Below, piece after piece: positions 1 through 17,239 of a DNA stretch of 18,730 nucleotides (positions are counted from its first letter, which is position 1; each line of letters starts with the position of its first letter). A model generated the notes under the pieces. It saw nothing but the letters and a program-made list of their open reading frames with translations, was not told the origin of the DNA and made no database searches. The position numbers and the translations under genes were made by a program. Origin of the DNA: an uncultured Eubacteriales bacterium (GTDB lineage Bacteria > Bacillota > Clostridia > Oscillospirales > CAG-272); the NCBI GenBank assembly GCA_934446065.1, contig CAKSDP010000030.1, positions 1-18,730 of the forward strand, written 5' to 3'.

Positions 1-33
1 AAATAGATATAGTGAGTGCAGGGTTTTATTTTA

Positions 34-513
34 GGCTCCCTTGTGTAAAGGGAGCTGTCAGCCGCACGGCTGACTGAGGGATTGTTGCACAAGTGAATCA
101 ATATACCGGCAAACCCCTCTGAAATTACTGTTTACTTCGCTATTCAGGCTCCGGATCACCTTGATCCCATACTTCTCTAAAAATTCTGTTCGCTCAGCAT
201 CTTTCAGTATGTTCTCATCGTCAAAATGTTGTGATCCGTCAAGTTCAATAACAATTTGCGCTTTTGCACTGTAAAAATCTGCGATATAATTGCCGAGAAT
301 TTTCTGTCTGGAAAATCGTACGGGATAATCCCTTAAGAAGTCATACCACAAATGACATTCTTCTTTTGTCATTTCTTTACGTAATTTTCTTGCAAACGGA
401 ACAAGCATATGATTGTGTTTTGAACGCATATCAAGGTCTCCGTTTTTTCTTCTTAATTTTATCAATCCCTCCGTCAGCCTTGCGGCTGCCACCTCCCTTT
501 ACACAAGGGAGGC
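34..513 (-). mobile_element. 480-bp cassette: one DUF559 endonuclease gene between ~47-bp imperfect terminal inverted repeats, nested in repeat copy E
   Basis: 34..80 and the reverse complement of 467..513 match at 42 of 47 positions by hand alignment, plus 4 more matching bases inward. Each arm contains a full P hairpin (ctccctt-loop-aagggag) and a second hairpin (gtcagcc-gcac-ggctgac at 57..74; gtcagcc-ttgc-ggctgcc at 473..490). The other four family copies have a single P hairpin and no ORF at this position. Confidence 0.6.
58..429 (-). CDS. DUF559 domain endonuclease (Vsr-like PD-(D/E)XK fold)
   Basis: The translation ARKLRKEMTKEECHLWYDFLR..RFSRQKILGNYIADFY..QIVIELDGSQH..RTEFLEKYGIKVIRSLNSEV fits the DUF559 family pattern. 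I prefer ATG at 429..427, which has GGAG 8 nt upstream (acGGAGaccttgatATG). The frame also opens with GTG at 492, but that lies inside the right inverted repeat. The stop TGA (60..58) lies inside the left inverted repeat. Confidence 0.85.
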   Translation of the reverse strand: MRSKHNHMLVPFARKLRKEMTKEECHLWYDFLRDYPVRFSRQKILGNYIADFYSAKAQIVIELDGSQHFDDENILKDAERTEFLEKYGIKVIRSLNSEVNSNFRGVCRYIDSLVQQSLSQPCG

Positions 514-627
514 TTGGGTTTGCACAAACCAATTATATATGCCCAGTATAAAGCTTTTGCGGAGCTTTTCTCGAAAAGCGACCGTTCCCCTTTCTCGAAA
601 AGCGGCTCGTTCCTTTCCAACTGTCCC

Positions 628-7270: not shown

Positions 7271-7304
7271 AACGCTCCTCGGTTATTGTGTATTTATTTA
7301 AGTA

Positions 7305-7700
7305 TTTCAGCAGGGGGACCTTTTGAAAAAAGCTCCCCCTGCACCCCTCCAAAAAGATGCGAATAAATGGATTTGTTGCGAGAGGAGATTTTTGAAAAAA
7401 TCCCCTCTCGCGCTCTCCCTAAAAACTTTTAACTAAATAAAAGGATTAAGTAAGTGCAGAATCTTAGCCAAGGCTCCCTTGTGTAAAGGGAGGCTTTGGT
7501 CTGCCTAAACTCCACGTCTGTGGCGGGAGCCGCGAGAGCGGATACCGCTCACTTGCAGTTTTCTGATAGTTCGGACAAACCATATCGTGGGATATCTCTC
7601 GACTTCAACTGAAGTCTACGTCTTGCACAAACCAAATAAAATGTACCCAGTATAAAGTTCTTTGCGCCACTTTCTTTCAAGAAAGTGGCTCGTATCCCCT
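7305..7700. repeat. Copy A of the modular intergenic repeat (order H1, H2, L, P, S, T, Q)
   Basis: Modules are H1 hairpin 7310..7342, H2 hairpin 7378..7411, P hairpin 7472..7494, S core 7498..7633 and Q hairpin 7666..7689. In the S core the left closing arm is degenerate (ggtCtgCCTaa). The copy fills the rbfA stop (7702) to nrnA start (7270) gap and aligns along its length with copies B, C and D. Confidence 0.9.
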
Positions 7701-8073: not shown

Positions 8074-8757
8074 TCAGCCGACAAGCTTCCGTATAATATC
8101 AAACTGTAACTGCGACTCCGCGCTGCTGTCGCTCTTGCCCATGACAAGCTGCGCGTGAGTCACCTTTTTCATGCAAATAATGCTGTCGTCGGGCAGGCAC
8201 GAGAAGCACGAGTGCTCCCGAAGAAGCCGCGACCCGCTCAGCTTTATCCCGTAGCCGTCGTCGGTCACCCCGTCCGGCACCTCGCCGAACAGCGCAGCCA
8301 CATCGTACAGCGCACCATTGTCGCGCGCCACATCGTACAGAACCGGATCAAGTATCATCATCACCGCGTCGCCCGAAACGAGCATCTGCGTAAATGACGC
8401 GTATGCGTTGTTGTTCTCAACAATGTTGAACTGGAATACCTCCCCCTCAGCCTCAGCCTCGGCGCGCATCTTTTCAAGCTTTTCCTCGGATTTGTACACG
8501 ATCATCTGAAAATTCACGTCCGTGTCGCGCCCCGCAGCCTCGTCTGACGCCGCGTCAAGCACGCTCACGATTCTGTCGTGCACCGCGCCGTCAATGTACG
8601 TCCCGCCGCAGTACAGCACCTGAAAATCATAGTTCTTCTTCTCAAACACTATCTGCGACAGACCGATCGCAAATATCAGCACAAACGATACAATGATTAT
8701 TGTCTGCCACTTGTAGTGGTACCAGAAATTTTCAAGATTCTCTTTTTTTGTGCTCAA
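8074..8757 (-). CDS. Membrane-anchored protein of unknown function (single N-terminal TM helix)
   Basis: The hydrophobic segment WQTIIIVSFVLIFAIGLSQIVF follows a short charged N-terminus. The only plausible start is TTG at 8757, with cGGAGGAgttcggaatt upstream. It is tightly packed between the lipoprotein gene and rbfA. Confidence 0.6.
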   Translation of the reverse strand: MSTKKENLENFWYHYKWQTIIIVSFVLIFAIGLSQIVFEKKNYDFQVLYCGGTYIDGAVHDRIVSVLDAASDEAAGRDTDVNFQMIVYKSEEKLEKMRAEAEAEGEVFQFNIVENNNAYASFTQMLVSGDAVMMILDPVLYDVARDNGALYDVAALFGEVPDGVTDDGYGIKLSGSRLLREHSCFSCLPDDSIICMKKVTHAQLVMGKSDSSAESQLQFDIIRKLVG

Positions 8758-8778
8758 AATTCCGAACTCCTCCGAATA

Positions 8779-9387
8779 TCAGTACGTCGGCGTGTCAAGG
8801 CGCCATCCGTCTGCCTCAAGCTTCAGCGTAACGGTAAACTCACTGCGCTCGCCGCCGCACTCGGCGTAAACGGCGATCACCGCAGTGTCCGCACCTACGG
8901 CATCCTTCACATCAGCGATCCGCACCGTGTCGGTGTCGGGGATCCGTTCGGGCAGGGAGTTTTTCGCCTGGCTCACGTTTATCTTCATGACGCCGCCCTC
9001 GCTCACGTATCTCGCGAGCAGAGCCGAATCATCGGACACGTTCACTCCTTCGAACGCCACCTTCTCGATGTCGTCGGAGTAGCTTTCGGTGTAAACGCTG
9101 CGCACCTTTTCCATAAGCTCCGACTGCGAAATATATTTCGCGTCGCCGGAAAGCTCGGCGTATGCGGCGTCTCCCAAGTCCTGCGAGGACATTGTTGCCT
9201 CGTCGTACTCAAGTCCGCCCCAGAAGAATATGCGGTTGACCTCAACGGCGGACCCGAGCAGCTCCTTTGCGGCGGCGATGACCTCGCCCTCGTCAGCCGG
9301 AGTCTGCTTTTTCCCGCACGATGCGAGCGACACCGCAATAACCGCAGCAAGTGCAAGAATTATTGCACCGAGCCTTAATTTCTTCAT
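8779..9387 (-). CDS. Putative lipoprotein of unknown function
   Basis: The N-terminus MKKLRLGAIILALAAVIAVSLASCGKK is a signal peptide with an L-A-S-C lipobox. The ATG at 9387 is preceded by aaaggaaaagcag. Confidence 0.75.
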   Translation of the reverse strand: MKKLRLGAIILALAAVIAVSLASCGKKQTPADEGEVIAAAKELLGSAVEVNRIFFWGGLEYDEATMSSQDLGDAAYAELSGDAKYISQSELMEKVRSVYTESYSDDIEKVAFEGVNVSDDSALLARYVSEGGVMKINVSQAKNSLPERIPDTDTVRIADVKDAVGADTAVIAVYAECGGERSEFTVTLKLEADGWRLDTPTY

Positions 9388-9403: not shown

Positions 9404-9495
9404 TCTTTTCAATCGCTAAACTTTTAGTTTTACCTAACCGATAGTTTCTAACCGCTAAATCCTTAATTTTACCTAACCGATGGTTTCAACCGATG
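9404..9495. repeat. 39-bp tandem direct repeat, 2 full units plus a partial third, between gyrA and the lipoprotein gene
   Basis: Units 9404..9442 and 9443..9481 match at 30 of 39 positions by hand alignment. The 21-mer ttttacctaaccgat.gtttc recurs at 9428..9448 and 9467..9487 (20/21). A partial third unit (ggtttcaaccgatg) follows. The core (t/c)aaccg recurs four times. Confidence 0.8.
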
Positions 9496-12060: not shown

Positions 12061-12101
12061 AATCTCCCCTCCTTACGGGATGGATTTTTTATGAAATTGG
12101 G

Positions 12102-12498
12102 GTTTCGGCAGGGGGGACCTTTTTGAAAAAAGGTTCCCCCTGCACCCCTCCAAAAAATACGGATAAATGGGTTTGTTGCGAGAGGAGATTTTTGAAAAAA
12201 TCCCCTCTCGCGCTCTCCCCAAAAACTTTTAACTAAATAAAATGGATTTAGTAAGTGCAGGATTTTAGTTTAGGCTCCCTTGTGTAAAGGGAGGCTTGGG
12301 TTCGTGCAAACTCCACGTCCATGGCGGGAGCCGCGAGAGCGGAAACCGCTCACGTAAAGTCTCCTGATAGTTTGGATACCCATAGCGTGTGATATCTCTC
12401 GCCTTCAGCTTCGGAATTCGTCTTGCACAAACCTATTAAATATACCCAGTATAAAGTTCTTTGCGCCACTTTCTTGAAAGAAAGTGGCTCGTATCCCC
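12102..12498. repeat. Copy B of the modular intergenic repeat (order H1, H2, L, P, S, T, Q)
   Basis: Modules are H1 12108..12143, H2 12178..12211, P 12273..12295, S core 12299..12433 and Q 12465..12488. The S closing arms are ggttcgtgcaa and ttgcacaaacc, with one mismatch. The copy fills the gyrB stop (12499) to gyrA start (12060) gap. Confidence 0.92.
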
Positions 12499-14487: not shown

Positions 14488-14914
14488 AACGGATAAATGG
14501 GTTTGTTGCGAGAGGAGATTTTTGAAAAAATCCCCTCTCGCGCTCTCCCAAAAAAGCACGGTGGGATTTCAGCAGGGGGACCTTTTTGAAAAAAGCTCCC
14601 CCTGCACCCCTCCAAAAACTTTTAACTAAATAAATAGATTTAGTGAGTGCAGGATTTTAGTTTAGGCTCCCTTGTGTAAAGGGAGGCTTGGGTTTGTGCA
14701 AACTCCACGTTCATGGCGGGAGCCGCGAGAGCGGATACCGCTTACTCGAAGCCTCCTGATAGTTCGGATAAACTAAAACGTGGGATACCGCTCGACTTCA
14801 ACTGAAGCCTATGTCTTGCACAAACCAATTATATATGCCCAGTATAAAGTTCTTTTGGCGGCTTCCCACCGGGAAGGCGAGCTTTTCCTTTCAAGAAAAG
14901 AACACGTATCCCCT
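14488..14914. repeat. Copy C of the modular intergenic repeat (order H2, H1, L, P, S, T, Q, Q; H modules swapped relative to A and B)
   Basis: Modules are H2 14508..14541, H1 14572..14605, P 14665..14687 and S core 14691..14826 with a perfect 11-bp closing inverted repeat. The Q hairpins are 14862..14876 (cttccc-acc-gggaag) and 14882..14900. The copy fills the remB stop (14915) to gyrB start (14457) gap. Confidence 0.92.
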
Positions 14915-16410: not shown

Positions 16411-16455
16411 CTTTTGAAATAAAGTAAGATAAATAATAACTAAGTAAAATAAAAA
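16411..16455. other. Candidate DNA unwinding element (A+T-rich tract)
   Basis: cttttgaaataaagtaagataaataataactaagtaaaataaaaa is roughly 80 percent A+T by eye in a window that is otherwise well over 50 percent G+C. It lies next to the dnaN start. Confidence 0.6.
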
Positions 16456-16471
16456 TAGTAGTAGTAGGGGG
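16456..16471 (+). promoter_or_regulatory. DnaA-trio-like element: 4 tandem 5'-TAG-3' triplets followed by a G cluster
   Basis: TAGTAGTAGTAG (16456..16467) is followed directly by GGGG (16468..16471). Read from dnaA towards dnaN this is CCCC-CTA-CTA-CTA-CTA and then the A+T tract. That is the same order (boxes, GC cluster, trios, unwinding element) described for Bacillus subtilis oriC. Confidence 0.5.
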
Positions 16472-16542
16472 TGTTTGCTGTTTACTTCTTCTGCGGTGCG
16501 CTGCCGTGCGGGCGTTTGCGCCGCGAGCGGTATCGTTTTTGC

Positions 16543-16826
16543 TGTTGAAAAGTTTACGCGCCCTGTCGAAATATTCCTGCGCATTTGCCCGATCACTGAC
16601 GTGGTGCCGCAAGGCTCGTCTGCGCTTTTCAACGGTCGCTTGTTGTCGAATAAGTTTGTGTTGAAAACCGTTGGTGGCACGGTTTTCCCTTTGCTGTTTC
16701 ACACTTTCCGAAATACGTATCGAAAAAGTTACGAACAGCGCTGTGTCGTGCGTATTCGCACCAACGCTCCATCTTTCAACACTTATTTCAAAGGTTTTCA
16801 ACACACTTTTCAACACCTGTCGAAAA
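16543..16826. promoter_or_regulatory. Cluster of repeated 9-mer boxes: TTTTCAACA type (candidate DnaA boxes) and TGTCGAA type (Spo0A 0A-box consensus)
   Basis: TGTTGAAAA is at 16543..16551 and 16659..16667. TTTTCAACA is at 16795..16803 and 16807..16815, CTTTCAACA at 16773..16781 and TTTTCAACG at 16626..16634. TGTCGAA-containing sites are at 16564..16572, 16644..16652 and 16818..16826. The box differs from canonical TTATCCACA at 2 positions, so the DnaA assignment is an inference. Confidence 0.5.
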
Positions 16827-16860
16827 GTCCGGGGAATTTACGACGAGTGATGACGAATAG

Positions 16861-17239
16861 GTTTTTCAGCAGGGGGACCTTTTTGAAAAAAGGCTCCCCC
16901 TGCACCCCTCCAAAAACTTTTGAACTAAACAAAATGGGTTTGTTGATCAAGTGAGTGCAGGATTTTAGTTTAGGCTCCCTTGTGTAAAAGGAGGCTTGGG
17001 TTTGTGCAAACTCCACGTCTGCGGCGGGAGCCGCGAGAGCGGAAACCGCTCACGTGCAATTTCCTGATAGTTTGGATAAACTAAAACGTGGGATACCGCT
17101 CGGTTTCACCTGAAGCTTATATCTTGCACAAACCAATTAAAATGTACCCAGTATAAAGTTCTTTTGGTTCTTTTCTTTCAAGAAAAGAACTCGTTTCCTT
17201 TTCACGAAAAAGTGGCTCGTTCCCTTTACCCCGTCCCCA
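16861..17239. repeat. Copy D of the modular intergenic repeat (order H1, L, P, S, T, Q, Q; no H2), lying between the dnaA stop and the oriC box cluster
   Basis: Modules are H1 16869..16903, P 16973..16995 (one stem mutation, aaaaggagg) and S core 16999..17134 with a perfect 11-bp closing inverted repeat. Q is at 17167..17190 (gttcttttc-tttcaa-gaaaagaac), with a weaker second hairpin near 17197..17212. The copy abuts the dnaA stop at 17240. Confidence 0.92.

Follow-up and report, generated by a model that had tools for sequence, protein, structure and literature searches.

Several described families of extragenic repeats are built from short palindromic modules. [quoted passage not shown] The BOX elements of Streptococcus pneumoniae (boxA-boxB(n)-boxC) and the NIME and Correia elements of Neisseria are modular, hairpin-rich and lineage-restricted intergenic repeats that gain and lose modules; the RS units of NIME are bounded by short inverted repeats, and these elements are co-transcribed with their neighbours. 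We know of no nuclease cassette hosted by the BOX, NIME or Correia families. Free-standing homing endonuclease genes, which include the Vsr-like EDxHD family and I-Bth0305I, are small nuclease genes present or absent at conserved sites, whereas MITEs are recognized by terminal inverted repeats, the lack of an ORF, a larger ORF-bearing relative and insertion polymorphism. To our knowledge, DUF559 (PF04480) is a very large family with no established function. REPtrons and REPIN-RAYT systems consist of a small nuclease gene between two inverted hairpin elements (PMC8266576, PMC3337134), the cognate nuclease gene being flanked by REP sequences in the same manner as the cassette presented below (PMC3733652, PMC8266576); REP palindromes show a conserved GTAG or CGTC tetranucleotide at one end (PMC3733652). 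DUF559 proteins have been reported as 14-fold enriched among the predicted targets of programmed inversion, i.e., genes overlapped by inverted repeats (PMC9881135), and our literature search found no paper placing DUF559 in a mobile or palindromic element.

The stretch of DNA analysed here, 18,730 nt of contig CAKSDP010000030.1 (assembly GCA_934446065.1), will be referred to as "the window"; its host is an uncultured human-gut Clostridia bacterium. A hairpin-rich modular repeat of ~400 bp occupies the gaps after holA, rbfA, gyrB, remB and dnaA, and its five copies make up ~12% of the window. The family is confirmed as real, well beyond chance: a repeat search of the window returned families of 254, 167, 130, 86 and 57 nt with copies in these five gaps, and the T-module pattern TTGCACAAACC-N10-13-CCCAGTATAAAG matched all five on the plus strand and was never matched in 200 shuffles. 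This bears out the five co-oriented copies proposed in a first-pass annotation of the same DNA; the elements are co-oriented with the genes because all genes of the window are on the minus strand. Read on the gene strand, a full unit follows the upstream stop codon in the order Q, T, S, P, L and one to three H units, and occupies entire intergenic gaps (Table 1). Broadly, Q is a GGGGAnACG box with one or two hairpins, S a core of ~135 nt with a 13-bp inverted repeat closing it, P a hairpin of 7-8 bp, and each H unit a G-rich box plus a hairpin (in the exemplar copy, the box TTTTTGGAGGGGT, a GC-rich stem and the palindromic loop TTTTTTCAAAAA). The modules H1, H2, L, P, S, T and Q were each recovered as they had originally been written down. 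Beyond H1, the exemplar ends in ~45 nt of unique leader that include the ribosome-binding site of gyrA. Paralogous copies proved less alike than the 80-95% first estimated, with an ungapped identity of 72-86% in the long families; the S core reaches a mean column identity of 84% over 23 distinct copies. The assignment of remB was upheld by an NCBIfam match of 43.2 bits (cut-off 40), Pfam giving none. Downstream of dnaA a copy is indeed present, but it fills only part of the 862-nt dnaA-dnaN gap, the rest of which looks like oriC.

Table 1. Repeat copies, modules and nuclease cassette in the window (positions count from the first nucleotide of the window).
Feature	Position	Strand	Description
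Copy c1, downstream of holA	1..627	-	Cut by window edge; Q 559-613, T 520-558; palindrome GGTTTGCACAAACC 517-530 in place of S; DUF559 cassette 34-513; L fragment 1-33
DUF559 cassette	34..513	-	Two ~50-bp terminal inverted repeats enclosing the nuclease gene; inverted P hairpins 34-55 and 492-513
DUF559 gene	58..429	-	123 aa from ATG; Pfam PF04480, E = 1.4e-26
Copy c2, rbfA-nrnA gap	7304..7700	-	H1 7304-7360, H2 7373-7429, P 7472-7494, S 7496-7633, T 7623-7663, Q 7664-7700
Copy c3 (exemplar), entire gyrB-gyrA gap	12061..12498	-	Gene-strand order Q-T-S-P-L-H2-H1
H1 and H2 of c3	12105..12229	-	H1 12105-12161, H2 12173-12229
L linker of c3	12226..12272	-	A+T-rich; short inverted repeat AACTAAA/TTTAGTT
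Solo P hairpin of c3	12273..12295	-	Gene strand GCCTCCCTT-TACAC-AAGGGAGCC
S core of c3	12296..12433	-	~135 nt; closing inverted repeat GGTTTGTGCAAGAC / GTTTGCACGAACC
T of c3	12423..12462	-	AAAGAACTTTATACTGGGTATATTTAATAGG on gene strand; best-conserved stretch of the family
Q of c3	12463..12498	-	GGGGATACG box and hairpin AGCCACTTTCTT/AAGAAAGTGGC; directly follows the gyrB stop codon
Copy c4, remB-gyrB gap	14488..14914	-	H2 14503-14559, H1 14567-14623 (swapped order), P 14665-14687, S 14688-14826, T 14816-14855, two Q hairpins 14856-14914
Copy c5, downstream of dnaA	16861..17239	-	Single H1 16865-16921, P 16973-16995, S 16996-17134, T 17124-17164, two Q hairpins 17165-17239

The initial suggestion of a mosaic intergenic repeat of the BIME, BOX or Correia kind is supported. 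The repeat has all the BIME traits listed above, and imperfect GC-rich palindromes of 20-40 bp recur outside genes at high copy (H, P and Q; 18 sites in ~57 kb). It differs from BIMEs in its unrelated sequence, its ~400-bp unit and its 135-nt core; furthermore, the H units within the composite are direct repeats, and not the alternating inverted REPs of a BIME. Neither GTAG nor CGTC is found at the feet of the stems, those of H beginning with GCAG or GCGA and those of P with GCCT or GGCT, while Q follows GGGGAnACG; and no RAYT (Y1 HUH) gene was seen among the called genes of loci L001-L006 and L107-L111 or the ORFs of L008 and L010 (~57 kb). The general features of BOX, NIME and Correia elements are likewise shared, in another taxon and with no sequence relationship recognized. 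Scanned against Rfam by E-value, the whole window yielded just three chance matches (E > 0.3), and a gathering-threshold scan of six related loci only two tRNAs and one THF riboswitch, none of them relevant; the family, which the first-pass annotation had been unable to name, thus matches no Rfam entry.

Between dispersal and a local segmental duplication, the alternatives considered at the outset, the evidence is for dispersal. An nhmmer profile of the element located 18 distinct sites, all intergenic, in ~57 kb of conspecific contigs; among them are copies in the aro operon, which lies upstream of dnaA, and others that follow uvrA, a folC-like gene (before mnmG) and an AI-2E transporter gene. 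Density is about one site per 3 kb in all readable DNA of the species, any genome-wide copy number being an extrapolation from loci partly chosen for containing the element; the concentration around dnaA, gyrB and gyrA, which had appeared striking, is not special, since the same density holds in every stretch read. An origin-specific role was also considered and discarded, canonical DnaA boxes not being enriched and the elements being equally dense far from the origin. As to orientation, 15 of the 18 sites are in sense to the gene at whose stop codon they lie, two are antisense and one is unassigned; a complete inverted (antisense) unit lies between aroB and aroA. Most sense copies have their Q starting 0-3 nt past the stop codon, and in convergent gene pairs each gene has its own sense copy, with a canonical bidirectional terminator in between. 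Co-orientation reflects the direction of the abutting upstream gene, and given this usual sense placement at a stop codon the unit would be transcribed as 3' UTR or intercistronic spacer; the position of Q exactly at stop codons may reflect a function at the RNA level.

In many public assemblies the contig with gyrB is 2.0-2.5 kb long, which would be expected of assemblies broken at the flanking repeats, and contigs with the DUF559 gene often terminate right past it. The T pattern was found in no contig among 185,579 representative genomes, a collection whose best GyrB relative is only 75% identical, so that the species, and probably the genus, is absent from it; JGI metagenomes yielded only four contigs with the pattern. 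The repeat also marks at least one synteny breakpoint.

Conspecific strains, whose genes are 97.4-100% identical, have orthologous elements that are 84-99% identical over aligned columns and differ in addition by module indels. The S core, H hairpins and inserts at P are gained or lost between strains; two sites, that of holA and the one upstream of dnaA, have or lack S according to strain, and a 66-nt H2 unit is almost the sole difference of the window from L005 and L006, copy c5 lacking the 66-nt L'+H2 unit that these otherwise identical strains possess. The repeat changes much more rapidly than the genes on either side, with entire modules being added or dropped. These modules also differ greatly in age and range. 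The S core was found only in this species, and in none of the loci of 80 related species or the viral contigs; nor was the composite found at the same junctions in related species. P is common to many other taxa and viral contigs, L-like linkers lie between P and H in other taxa, and a few related genera also have H-like hairpins and Q-T, the H-like units there being solitary and in both orientations; the orthologous remB-gyrB gap of two other genera holds Q-T and L-H frames. Viral contigs gave about two credible H-like matches only and no real match to Q-T.

The copy after holA had been taken for the same composite as the others, and all copies for transposase-free. The second statement is literally true, but c1 has no S core, and between two inverted P hairpins it contains an overlooked gene for a DUF559 nuclease, enclosed by ~50-bp inverted repeats that include P, which makes this gene the obvious candidate for a mobility factor. 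The same ORF is called as a 123-aa gene in public assemblies. Its product has an additional weak Pfam match to MTES_1575, its nearest structure is PDB 3HRL, an "endonuclease-like protein" (E = 1e-9), and it is predicted to be a protein of the PD-(D/E)XK, Vsr-like endonuclease fold. Each end of the cassette combines P with a second hairpin and with a further sequence, which is GGAGGGATTG at one end and CAATCCCTC at the other (as a motif: P, a variable second hairpin, GAGGGATTG), and the left end also supplies the Shine-Dalgarno sequence of the gene. Strains vary in having DUF559 at the holA site: the window, L002 and L004-L006 have it, L001 and L003 do not. The exact protein was found in this species at that one site only, downstream of holA, and its action on other repeat copies is conjecture.

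Like a REPtron, the cassette is a small nuclease gene between two inverted hairpin elements, the latter being also scattered genome-wide, alone or as inverted doublets; this arrangement was found in four genomic contexts from different species, the three others enclosing DUF559 genes of 72-79% identity, while DUF559 genes at 45-52% identity have a degenerate left leader only and no right repeat. It differs from REPtrons in its DUF559 PD-(D/E)XK (Vsr-like) fold, where these have an HUH Y1 transposase, and in its ends, which are two-hairpin units of ~50 bp with a Shine-Dalgarno sequence in the left copy. Homing endonuclease genes offer another parallel, as the cassette has a small Vsr-related nuclease gene, present or absent at a conserved site (here the holA site), with flanking homology available for copying; unlike them, it lies in non-coding repeats instead of a gene or intron, its cleavage activity is a prediction, and it has long inverted ends and ORF-less derivatives, normally absent in those genes. 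The derivatives in question are homologous minis of ~157 bp, which sit at P in five different repeat copies, these sites being filled or empty according to strain. They resemble MITEs in their ~50-bp terminal inverted repeats, lack of an ORF, larger ORF-bearing relative and insertion polymorphism between strains, and depart from them in showing no target-site duplication, their flanks merely extending the palindrome, and in having as partner the nuclease-fold protein DUF559, not a recognized transposase; the 400-bp composite itself, without terminal inverted repeats, is not MITE-like. Filled and empty P sites could also arise by deletion between the direct 7-nt arms of two P hairpins, and not by insertion.

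Solitary and paired ends of this motif occur in the species, in its relatives and in 90 viral contigs. No DUF559 gene was present in 80 viral-contig loci with 143 motif ends, so that the motif persists without an adjacent nuclease gene. Covariation in the two-hairpin motif is strong: over 69 distinct instances, 97% of cells are paired vs. 85.7% in shuffles, a value that none of 500 shuffles reaches, and six pairs have changed on both sides; the second hairpin alone has 81 distinct sequences, nearly all perfect stems. The motif is absent from Rfam. Ten viral loci checked by hand had suggested that solitary motifs trail stop codons in one orientation, an idea dropped after an automated tally of 15 vs. 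14, with 93 cases unassigned.

The explanation that we favour, with moderate confidence, is that of a lineage-specific mosaic extragenic repeat of ~400 bp, turning over by recombination and hosting a palindrome-associated nuclease cassette whose mobility we infer. The repeat would be non-coding, largely selfish DNA built of palindromic modules, and the composite would spread and be reshuffled by recombination and gene conversion among its many homologous copies, together with slippage at hairpins. The DUF559 protein would cut at or near the P palindrome, after which the cassette and the minis would be copied into empty P sites by break-induced, homing-like gene conversion, the flanking repeat modules serving as homology arms. 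Any host benefit would be secondary: hairpins at 3' ends might stabilize or insulate transcripts, or might modulate translation termination at the stop codon. The 400-bp composite lacks both terminal inverted repeats and a target duplication, its ends Q and H being in direct orientation; the inverted aroB/aroA copy shows no duplication at its boundaries, and no transposase genes were seen in the ~57 kb read.

We think it unlikely that the composite is instead a non-autonomous element of the IS200/IS605 or REP type, mobilized as ssDNA by an HUH (Y1) transposase acting in trans, with the DUF559 cassette as an unrelated passenger. Such an origin would agree with the common design and orientation of Q and H (a G-rich box, then a hairpin with a palindromic A/T loop), with a composite devoid of terminal inverted repeats and target duplication, with the strong strand bias (15/17), with H-like units that are solitary and in both orientations in related genera, like REPs, and with near-identical strains that differ by the clean presence or absence of one 66-nt H unit. 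However, the ~57 kb read contain no gene for a Y1/HUH or other transposase, orientation tracks the adjacent gene better than a single direction of replication (convergent genes have opposite copies), and the hairpins lack the GTAG or CGTC tag typical of most REPs (PMC3733652).

Two further proposals give the elements a cellular role. According to one, which we consider quite improbable, T and S form a multicopy small-RNA gene, T providing a -10-like box and S a structured RNA of ~135 nt, either an sRNA or a 3'-UTR-derived RNA with a cellular function. The fold of S has several helices and a closing stem of 13 bp, and folding of the element as a whole gives a z of about -6.9; changes at most of the variable stem positions are of a kind that retains G-U pairing on the gene strand, on which 17/23 copies fold better, GAGCGGTATCCGCTCTCGCGGCTCCCGCC is almost invariant in S, and TATAAT stands just upstream of S in several copies. 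RNAalifold gives a plausible fold on the gene strand, yet the covariation score of S is no better than in shuffles (0.167 vs. 0.176, with 451/500 shuffles at least as high), and S as a structured RNA is unproven. Besides, the opposite strand folds equally well overall, the energy difference between strands being small; there is neither a -35 box nor a terminator past S or P; S is missing in some copies and strains, in the loci of 80 related species and in viral contigs; and Rfam has no match. A reading of the modules as promoters or terminators was also rejected, as a consensus scan gave no excess, the hairpins have no U tract, and the -10-like box of T has no -35 partner.

Similarly improbable is that the elements are immobile cis-acting host sequences, 3'-UTR or intercistronic, for mRNA stability, termination or insulation, or ribosome release, homogenized by gene conversion. 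In its favour, Q lies 0-3 nt past the natural stop codon in most sense copies, and E. coli REPs near stop codons reportedly affect both translation and mRNA decay (Liang, Rudd and Deutscher, 2015); a canonical terminator beyond the element at convergent genes would likewise place the element in the 3' UTR, and Q-T and L-H frames recur in the orthologous remB-gyrB gap of two other genera. Against this, antisense copies exist, strains differ by whole modules with no visible consequence, the composite is missing at the same junctions in related species, and not one hairpin has a U tract behind it. Finally, although the repeats separate co-oriented ORFs and begin at stop codons as integron attC sites do, the negligible prospect that they are integron-like attC sites, or riboswitches or leaders of downstream genes, is effectively refuted by gene content and convergent arrangements: their flanks are core housekeeping genes in conserved order (dnaA, dnaN, gyrB, gyrA, rbfA, holA), no integrase was found among the called genes and no R''/R' core sites in the sequence, the facing copies of convergent genes have no downstream gene, and there is no Rfam match.

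The preferred reading, a mosaic repeat hosting a nuclease cassette, can be extended, tentatively and with some doubt, to the DUF559 clade of 122-125 aa as a whole, whose members might be the nucleases of an unrecognized class of palindrome-associated selfish elements that recognize P, are copied into P sites and use the repeats as habitat. The nuclease would recognize the invariant 19-nt P hairpin or palindrome of the ~50-bp two-hairpin end, and its own cassette and the ORF-less minis would be copied into P sites by homing-like gene conversion or by inversion, with the 400-bp mosaic repeats supplying both targets and homology arms. In function, the class would parallel REPtrons, with a Vsr-like PD-(D/E)XK fold as its basis.

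At ~12% of the window, and with a site about every 3 kb wherever the species has been read, the repeat is an unusually heavy non-coding load for a bacterium. It fragments the metagenome assemblies of a human-gut lineage, which matters for binning, strain typing and genome evolution, and its module-by-module turnover in near-identical strains offers a natural system for the gain and loss of palindromic DNA. The mosaic repeat itself is best read as lineage-specific and of the same kind as BIME, BOX and NIME, whereas the two-hairpin-ended DUF559 cassette proves, as far as sequence comparison can tell, widespread and undescribed. Its two-hairpin motif covaries strongly, brackets DUF559 genes in several species and is solitary in many viral contigs, and the physical tie of DUF559 to a specific palindrome provides a testable biochemical hypothesis for the family. 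If true, the extended reading of the DUF559 clade would for the first time assign a function to this very large domain family, and would account for a conserved DNA/RNA motif that is widespread among gut Clostridia and their phages.

Five gaps of the window, after holA, rbfA, gyrB, remB and dnaA, share a repeat that is clearly real. Repeat finding recovered families of direct repeats, 57-254 nt long, with members confined to these gaps, and a 23-base pattern for the T module matched all five on a single strand, as against 0 of 200 shuffled sequences. The five copies sum to ~2.2 kb, or ~12% of the window. Every module that the first-pass annotation had spelled out was found; its estimate by eye of 80-95% identity among copies was too high, the paralogous copies being 72-86% identical without gaps. 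Because the genes lie on the minus strand, which carries all long ORFs of the window, the element is read as the reverse complement (gene strand). A full unit begins 0-3 nt past the upstream gene's stop codon and runs from Q to H; only 20-60 unique bases, which include the next gene's ribosome-binding site, lie beyond it, so that the element fills the gap. No U tract follows any hairpin of the element, and a promoter and terminator scan of it gave no excess of sites. The 438-nt exemplar from the gyrB-gyrA gap forms a far more stable fold than its shuffles, with z near -6.9 on each strand; this is a property of palindromic DNA and does not identify the strand.

Modules of the repeat on the gene strand and features of the window and of compared loci
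Feature	Location	Sequence or content
Q	first module	GGGGAnACG box and 1 or 2 hairpins, loops TTTCTTGAAAGAAA
T	after Q	AAAGAACTTTATACTGGGTATATTTAATTGG
S	after T	~135 nt, closing repeat GGTTTGTGCAAGAC / GTTTGCACAAACC
P	after S	GCCTCCCTT-TACAC-AAGGGAGCC
L	after P	A+T-rich linker
H	last, 1 or 2 units	TTTTTGGAGGGGT, then GC-rich stem, palindromic loop TTTTTTCAAAAA
Exemplar	window 12061-12498 (-)	gyrB-gyrA gap
Copy 1	window 1-627	downstream of holA
DUF559 cassette	window 34-513 (-)	gene at 58-429; P hairpins 34-55 and 492-513, loop orientations opposite
Two-hairpin motif, consensus	viral contigs L112-L191; window 30-86, 461-517	AAAG[G/C], CTCCCTTGTGTAAAGGGAG, [C/G]TG, variable stem-loop, [T/G]GAGGGATTG
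Gene order	window	dnaA, dnaN, remB, gyrB, gyrA, 2 unknown ORFs, rbfA, nrnA, truB, second GyrB-like topoisomerase subunit, 3 further genes, holA
227-aa and 202-aa ORFs	window 8074-9387	neighbours between gyrA and rbfA
Tandem repeat	window 9406-9483	39-nt unit TTTTCAATCGCTAAACTTTTAGTTTTACCTAACCGATAG twice, 79% identical; short gap downstream of gyrA, ahead of 202-aa ORF
oriC-like region	window 16420-16830	dnaA-dnaN gap outside the repeat; 7 TGTTGAAAA/TTTTCAACA boxes (4 exact), then A+T-rich stretch beside dnaN
Upstream of dnaA, strain L111	1-8046	uvrB, uvrA, tRNA-editing gene, FTHFS, AI-2E transporter gene upstream of HTH gene and dnaA
Upstream of dnaA, strains L107-L110	1-7866	aro operon in place of the uvrB-to-AI-2E genes
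tRNA/riboswitch region	conspecific L010, 2857-3282	2 tRNA genes, THF riboswitch
remB-gyrB gap, two other genera	L012, L016; 9336-9900 each	Q-T start, ~560-nt core, L-H end
Mini after DUF559 cassette	L102 3450-3640 (also L227, L231)	ORF-less, inverted; diverged P stems GGCTCCACTGTGTAAGGGGAGC ... GTCTCTTTATACAAGAGAGAC

The T pattern was absent from 185,579 representative genomes, matched only four contigs in JGI metagenomes, and the nearest GyrB among representative genomes (uncultured Clostridia/Oscillospiraceae from animal guts) is 75% identical; the host is therefore an Oscillospirales-like lineage unrepresented in those genomes. Eleven conspecific loci were obtained as contigs that encode the window's RbfA and DnaA, from metagenomes of the human gut (cohorts including Hadza and Nepal) and from one NCBI MAG. 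Profile searches placed further copies in three aro-operon gaps upstream of dnaA, in the GtrA/MFS and folC-like/mnmG gaps, and after uvrA, the tRNA-editing gene, the AI-2E transporter gene and an ABC ATPase gene, together with a fragment immediately upstream of dnaA. The proposal of a dispersed family, not a single locus, is thus borne out; the special density proposed around origin genes is not, as the 18 sites in ~57 kb of conspecific DNA (~1 per 3 kb, in a sample with some bias, the element itself having led to part of the contigs) show no enrichment there. Many assemblies hold gyrB alone on contigs of 2.0-2.5 kb, and contigs with the DUF559 gene described below often end immediately past it, both of which hint at a high copy number.

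At 15 of 18 sites the element has the sense orientation of the gene whose stop codon it abuts, and at two it is antisense. At convergent gene pairs both genes have their own sense copy and a canonical bidirectional terminator follows beyond the elements, which places the elements in 3' UTRs. One antisense site, in the aroB/aroA gap, is a complete unit, and the composite thus behaves as a discrete, invertible block. The synteny break between strain L111 and strains L107-L110 falls at a pair of repeat copies.

Strains are 97.4-100% identical in their genes and 84-99% (aligned columns) in orthologous elements, which also differ by whole modules. Presence of S is polymorphic at two sites, the holA site and the one upstream of dnaA, and copies vary in how many H and Q hairpins they have; the window and two conspecific contigs (L005, L006) are separated by a clean 66-nt difference comprising part of L plus H2, with 100% identity in the rest of the segments compared. 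In some strains only, five different copies carry at P a homologous ORF-less insert (mini) of ~157 bp including both P hairpins, with ~50-bp inverted ends as in the DUF559 cassette. The holA site occurs in three states: S with an empty P, S with DUF559, and DUF559 without S.

The last of these is the state of copy 1 in the window. Five copies of one composite had been described; copy 1 differs from the rest, as it lacks S and holds a cassette that had been overlooked. The ORF between its P hairpins matches Pfam DUF559 over the full length (E = 1.4e-26) and is annotated as a 123-aa gene in public assemblies, and the nearest solved structure to its protein is that of an "endonuclease-like protein", 3HRL. 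Inverted repeats of ~50 bp flank the ORF, each made of the P hairpin, a second hairpin and GGAGGGATTG (left) or its complement CAATCCCTC (right), and the one on the right overlaps the 3'-terminal codons of the gene. DUF559 proteins are 14-fold enriched among predicted programmed-inversion targets in a published survey (PMC9881135), in keeping with genes that overlap inverted repeats; a literature search found no description of the cassette. Homologues 72-79% identical number in the thousands, many on very short contigs, and the same left and right ends frame such homologues in three other genomic contexts in other species, with the left-end GGAGGG at Shine-Dalgarno distance before the ATG. A mini also directly follows the cassette in another species (L102).

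The two-hairpin end of the cassette is a real, conserved structure. Exact P stems were found in 6 of 80 related-species loci, including one complete mini, and the exact P 19-mer in 90 IMG/VR contigs, where the second hairpin and GAGGGATTG are present at 91 of 95 occurrences. The second hairpin takes 81 distinct sequences, with perfect stems in almost all. Covariation is strong: across 69 distinct instances of the whole end, 97% of cells are paired (85.7% in shuffles) and both sides have changed at six pairs, a result matched by 0 of 500 shuffles. The closing pair of P alternates, being G-C in 36 cases and C-G in 31. The motif exists as two linked "haplotypes", a G-type and a C-type, that correspond to the left and right cassette ends. 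The Rfam scan of the window, spanning two full copies, gave no match for the motif; tRNA and THF riboswitch matches on a conspecific contig with two repeat copies (L010) confirm only that the scan works for this organism. In viral loci 107 of 143 motif ends are solitary and 18 pairs form minis, and none of the loci carrying these ends has a DUF559 gene. A preferred orientation of the motif after stop codons in viral loci, suggested by hand checking, was unconfirmed by an automated tally and is therefore not claimed.

Other modules are distributed differently. H-like units, with a G-rich box, a covarying GC stem, a conserved A/T loop and a C-rich tail, are sparse; a few related genera have them, in either orientation, and viral contigs essentially lack them. 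A P-L-H block is present in three viral contigs, and S was found in this species only. The orthologous remB-gyrB gap of two other genera encloses a different, hairpin-rich core that contains long inverted repeats (for example CTTGGCTGCCGCCGT / ACGGCGGCAGCCAAG) and has no Rfam match, and self-comparison of six related loci revealed no comparable multicopy composite. The GyrB match of five related loci (L011, L012, L014, L016, L030) spans ~2090 nt, ~150 nt more than the 1900-1950 nt elsewhere, which suggests an insertion in the gene.

For 23 distinct copies of S, RNAalifold predicted a fold of several helices on the gene strand. There, G-U pairs survive many of the A/G or C/U changes, while on the opposite strand the closing helices are lost. 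However, covariation measures for this fold were no better than shuffles, and the prediction had itself been made on the gene strand; an RNA function of S is unproven.

Elsewhere in the window, the two ORFs between gyrA and rbfA matched no Pfam or NCBIfam family, except for a sub-threshold lipoprotein signal-peptide match in the 202-aa ORF, and the nearby 39-nt tandem unit (family D11 of the repeat search) is unrelated to the main repeat. The window holds 21 matches to TGTTGAAAA/TTTTCAACA (at most one mismatch; 3.3 expected), many of them H-hairpin loops, and canonical TTATCCACA boxes were not enriched in the window scan. On the strand opposite the oriC-like region gene callers place an ORF of 150-174 aa, without a Pfam match and probably spurious.

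The general classification as a mosaic intergenic repeat of known kind was right, and the composite fits best among mosaic extragenic repeats of the BIME/BOX/NIME kind, as a new, lineage-specific one. It differs from REP/BIME in having no GTAG or CGTC tag and in its direct, not inverted, palindromes, and from a classical MITE in having neither terminal inverted repeats nor a target duplication. Its P module links it to a nuclease-bearing palindromic cassette, REPtron-like in layout, whose enzyme, unlike that of a REPtron, has a Vsr-like PD-(D/E)XK fold. We favor a mechanism in which the many homologous copies would recombine and convert one another, P would be the cut site of the DUF559 nuclease, and cassette and minis would be copied into empty P sites by way of homology in the surrounding repeat. 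Against this mechanism, the polymorphism of filled and empty P sites can also be produced by deletion between the direct arms of the two P hairpins, the nuclease gene was seen at one site only in this species, and the strict placement at stop codons may reflect a role at the RNA level. Most interest lies in the link between DUF559 and the palindromes, and in the very high repeat load.
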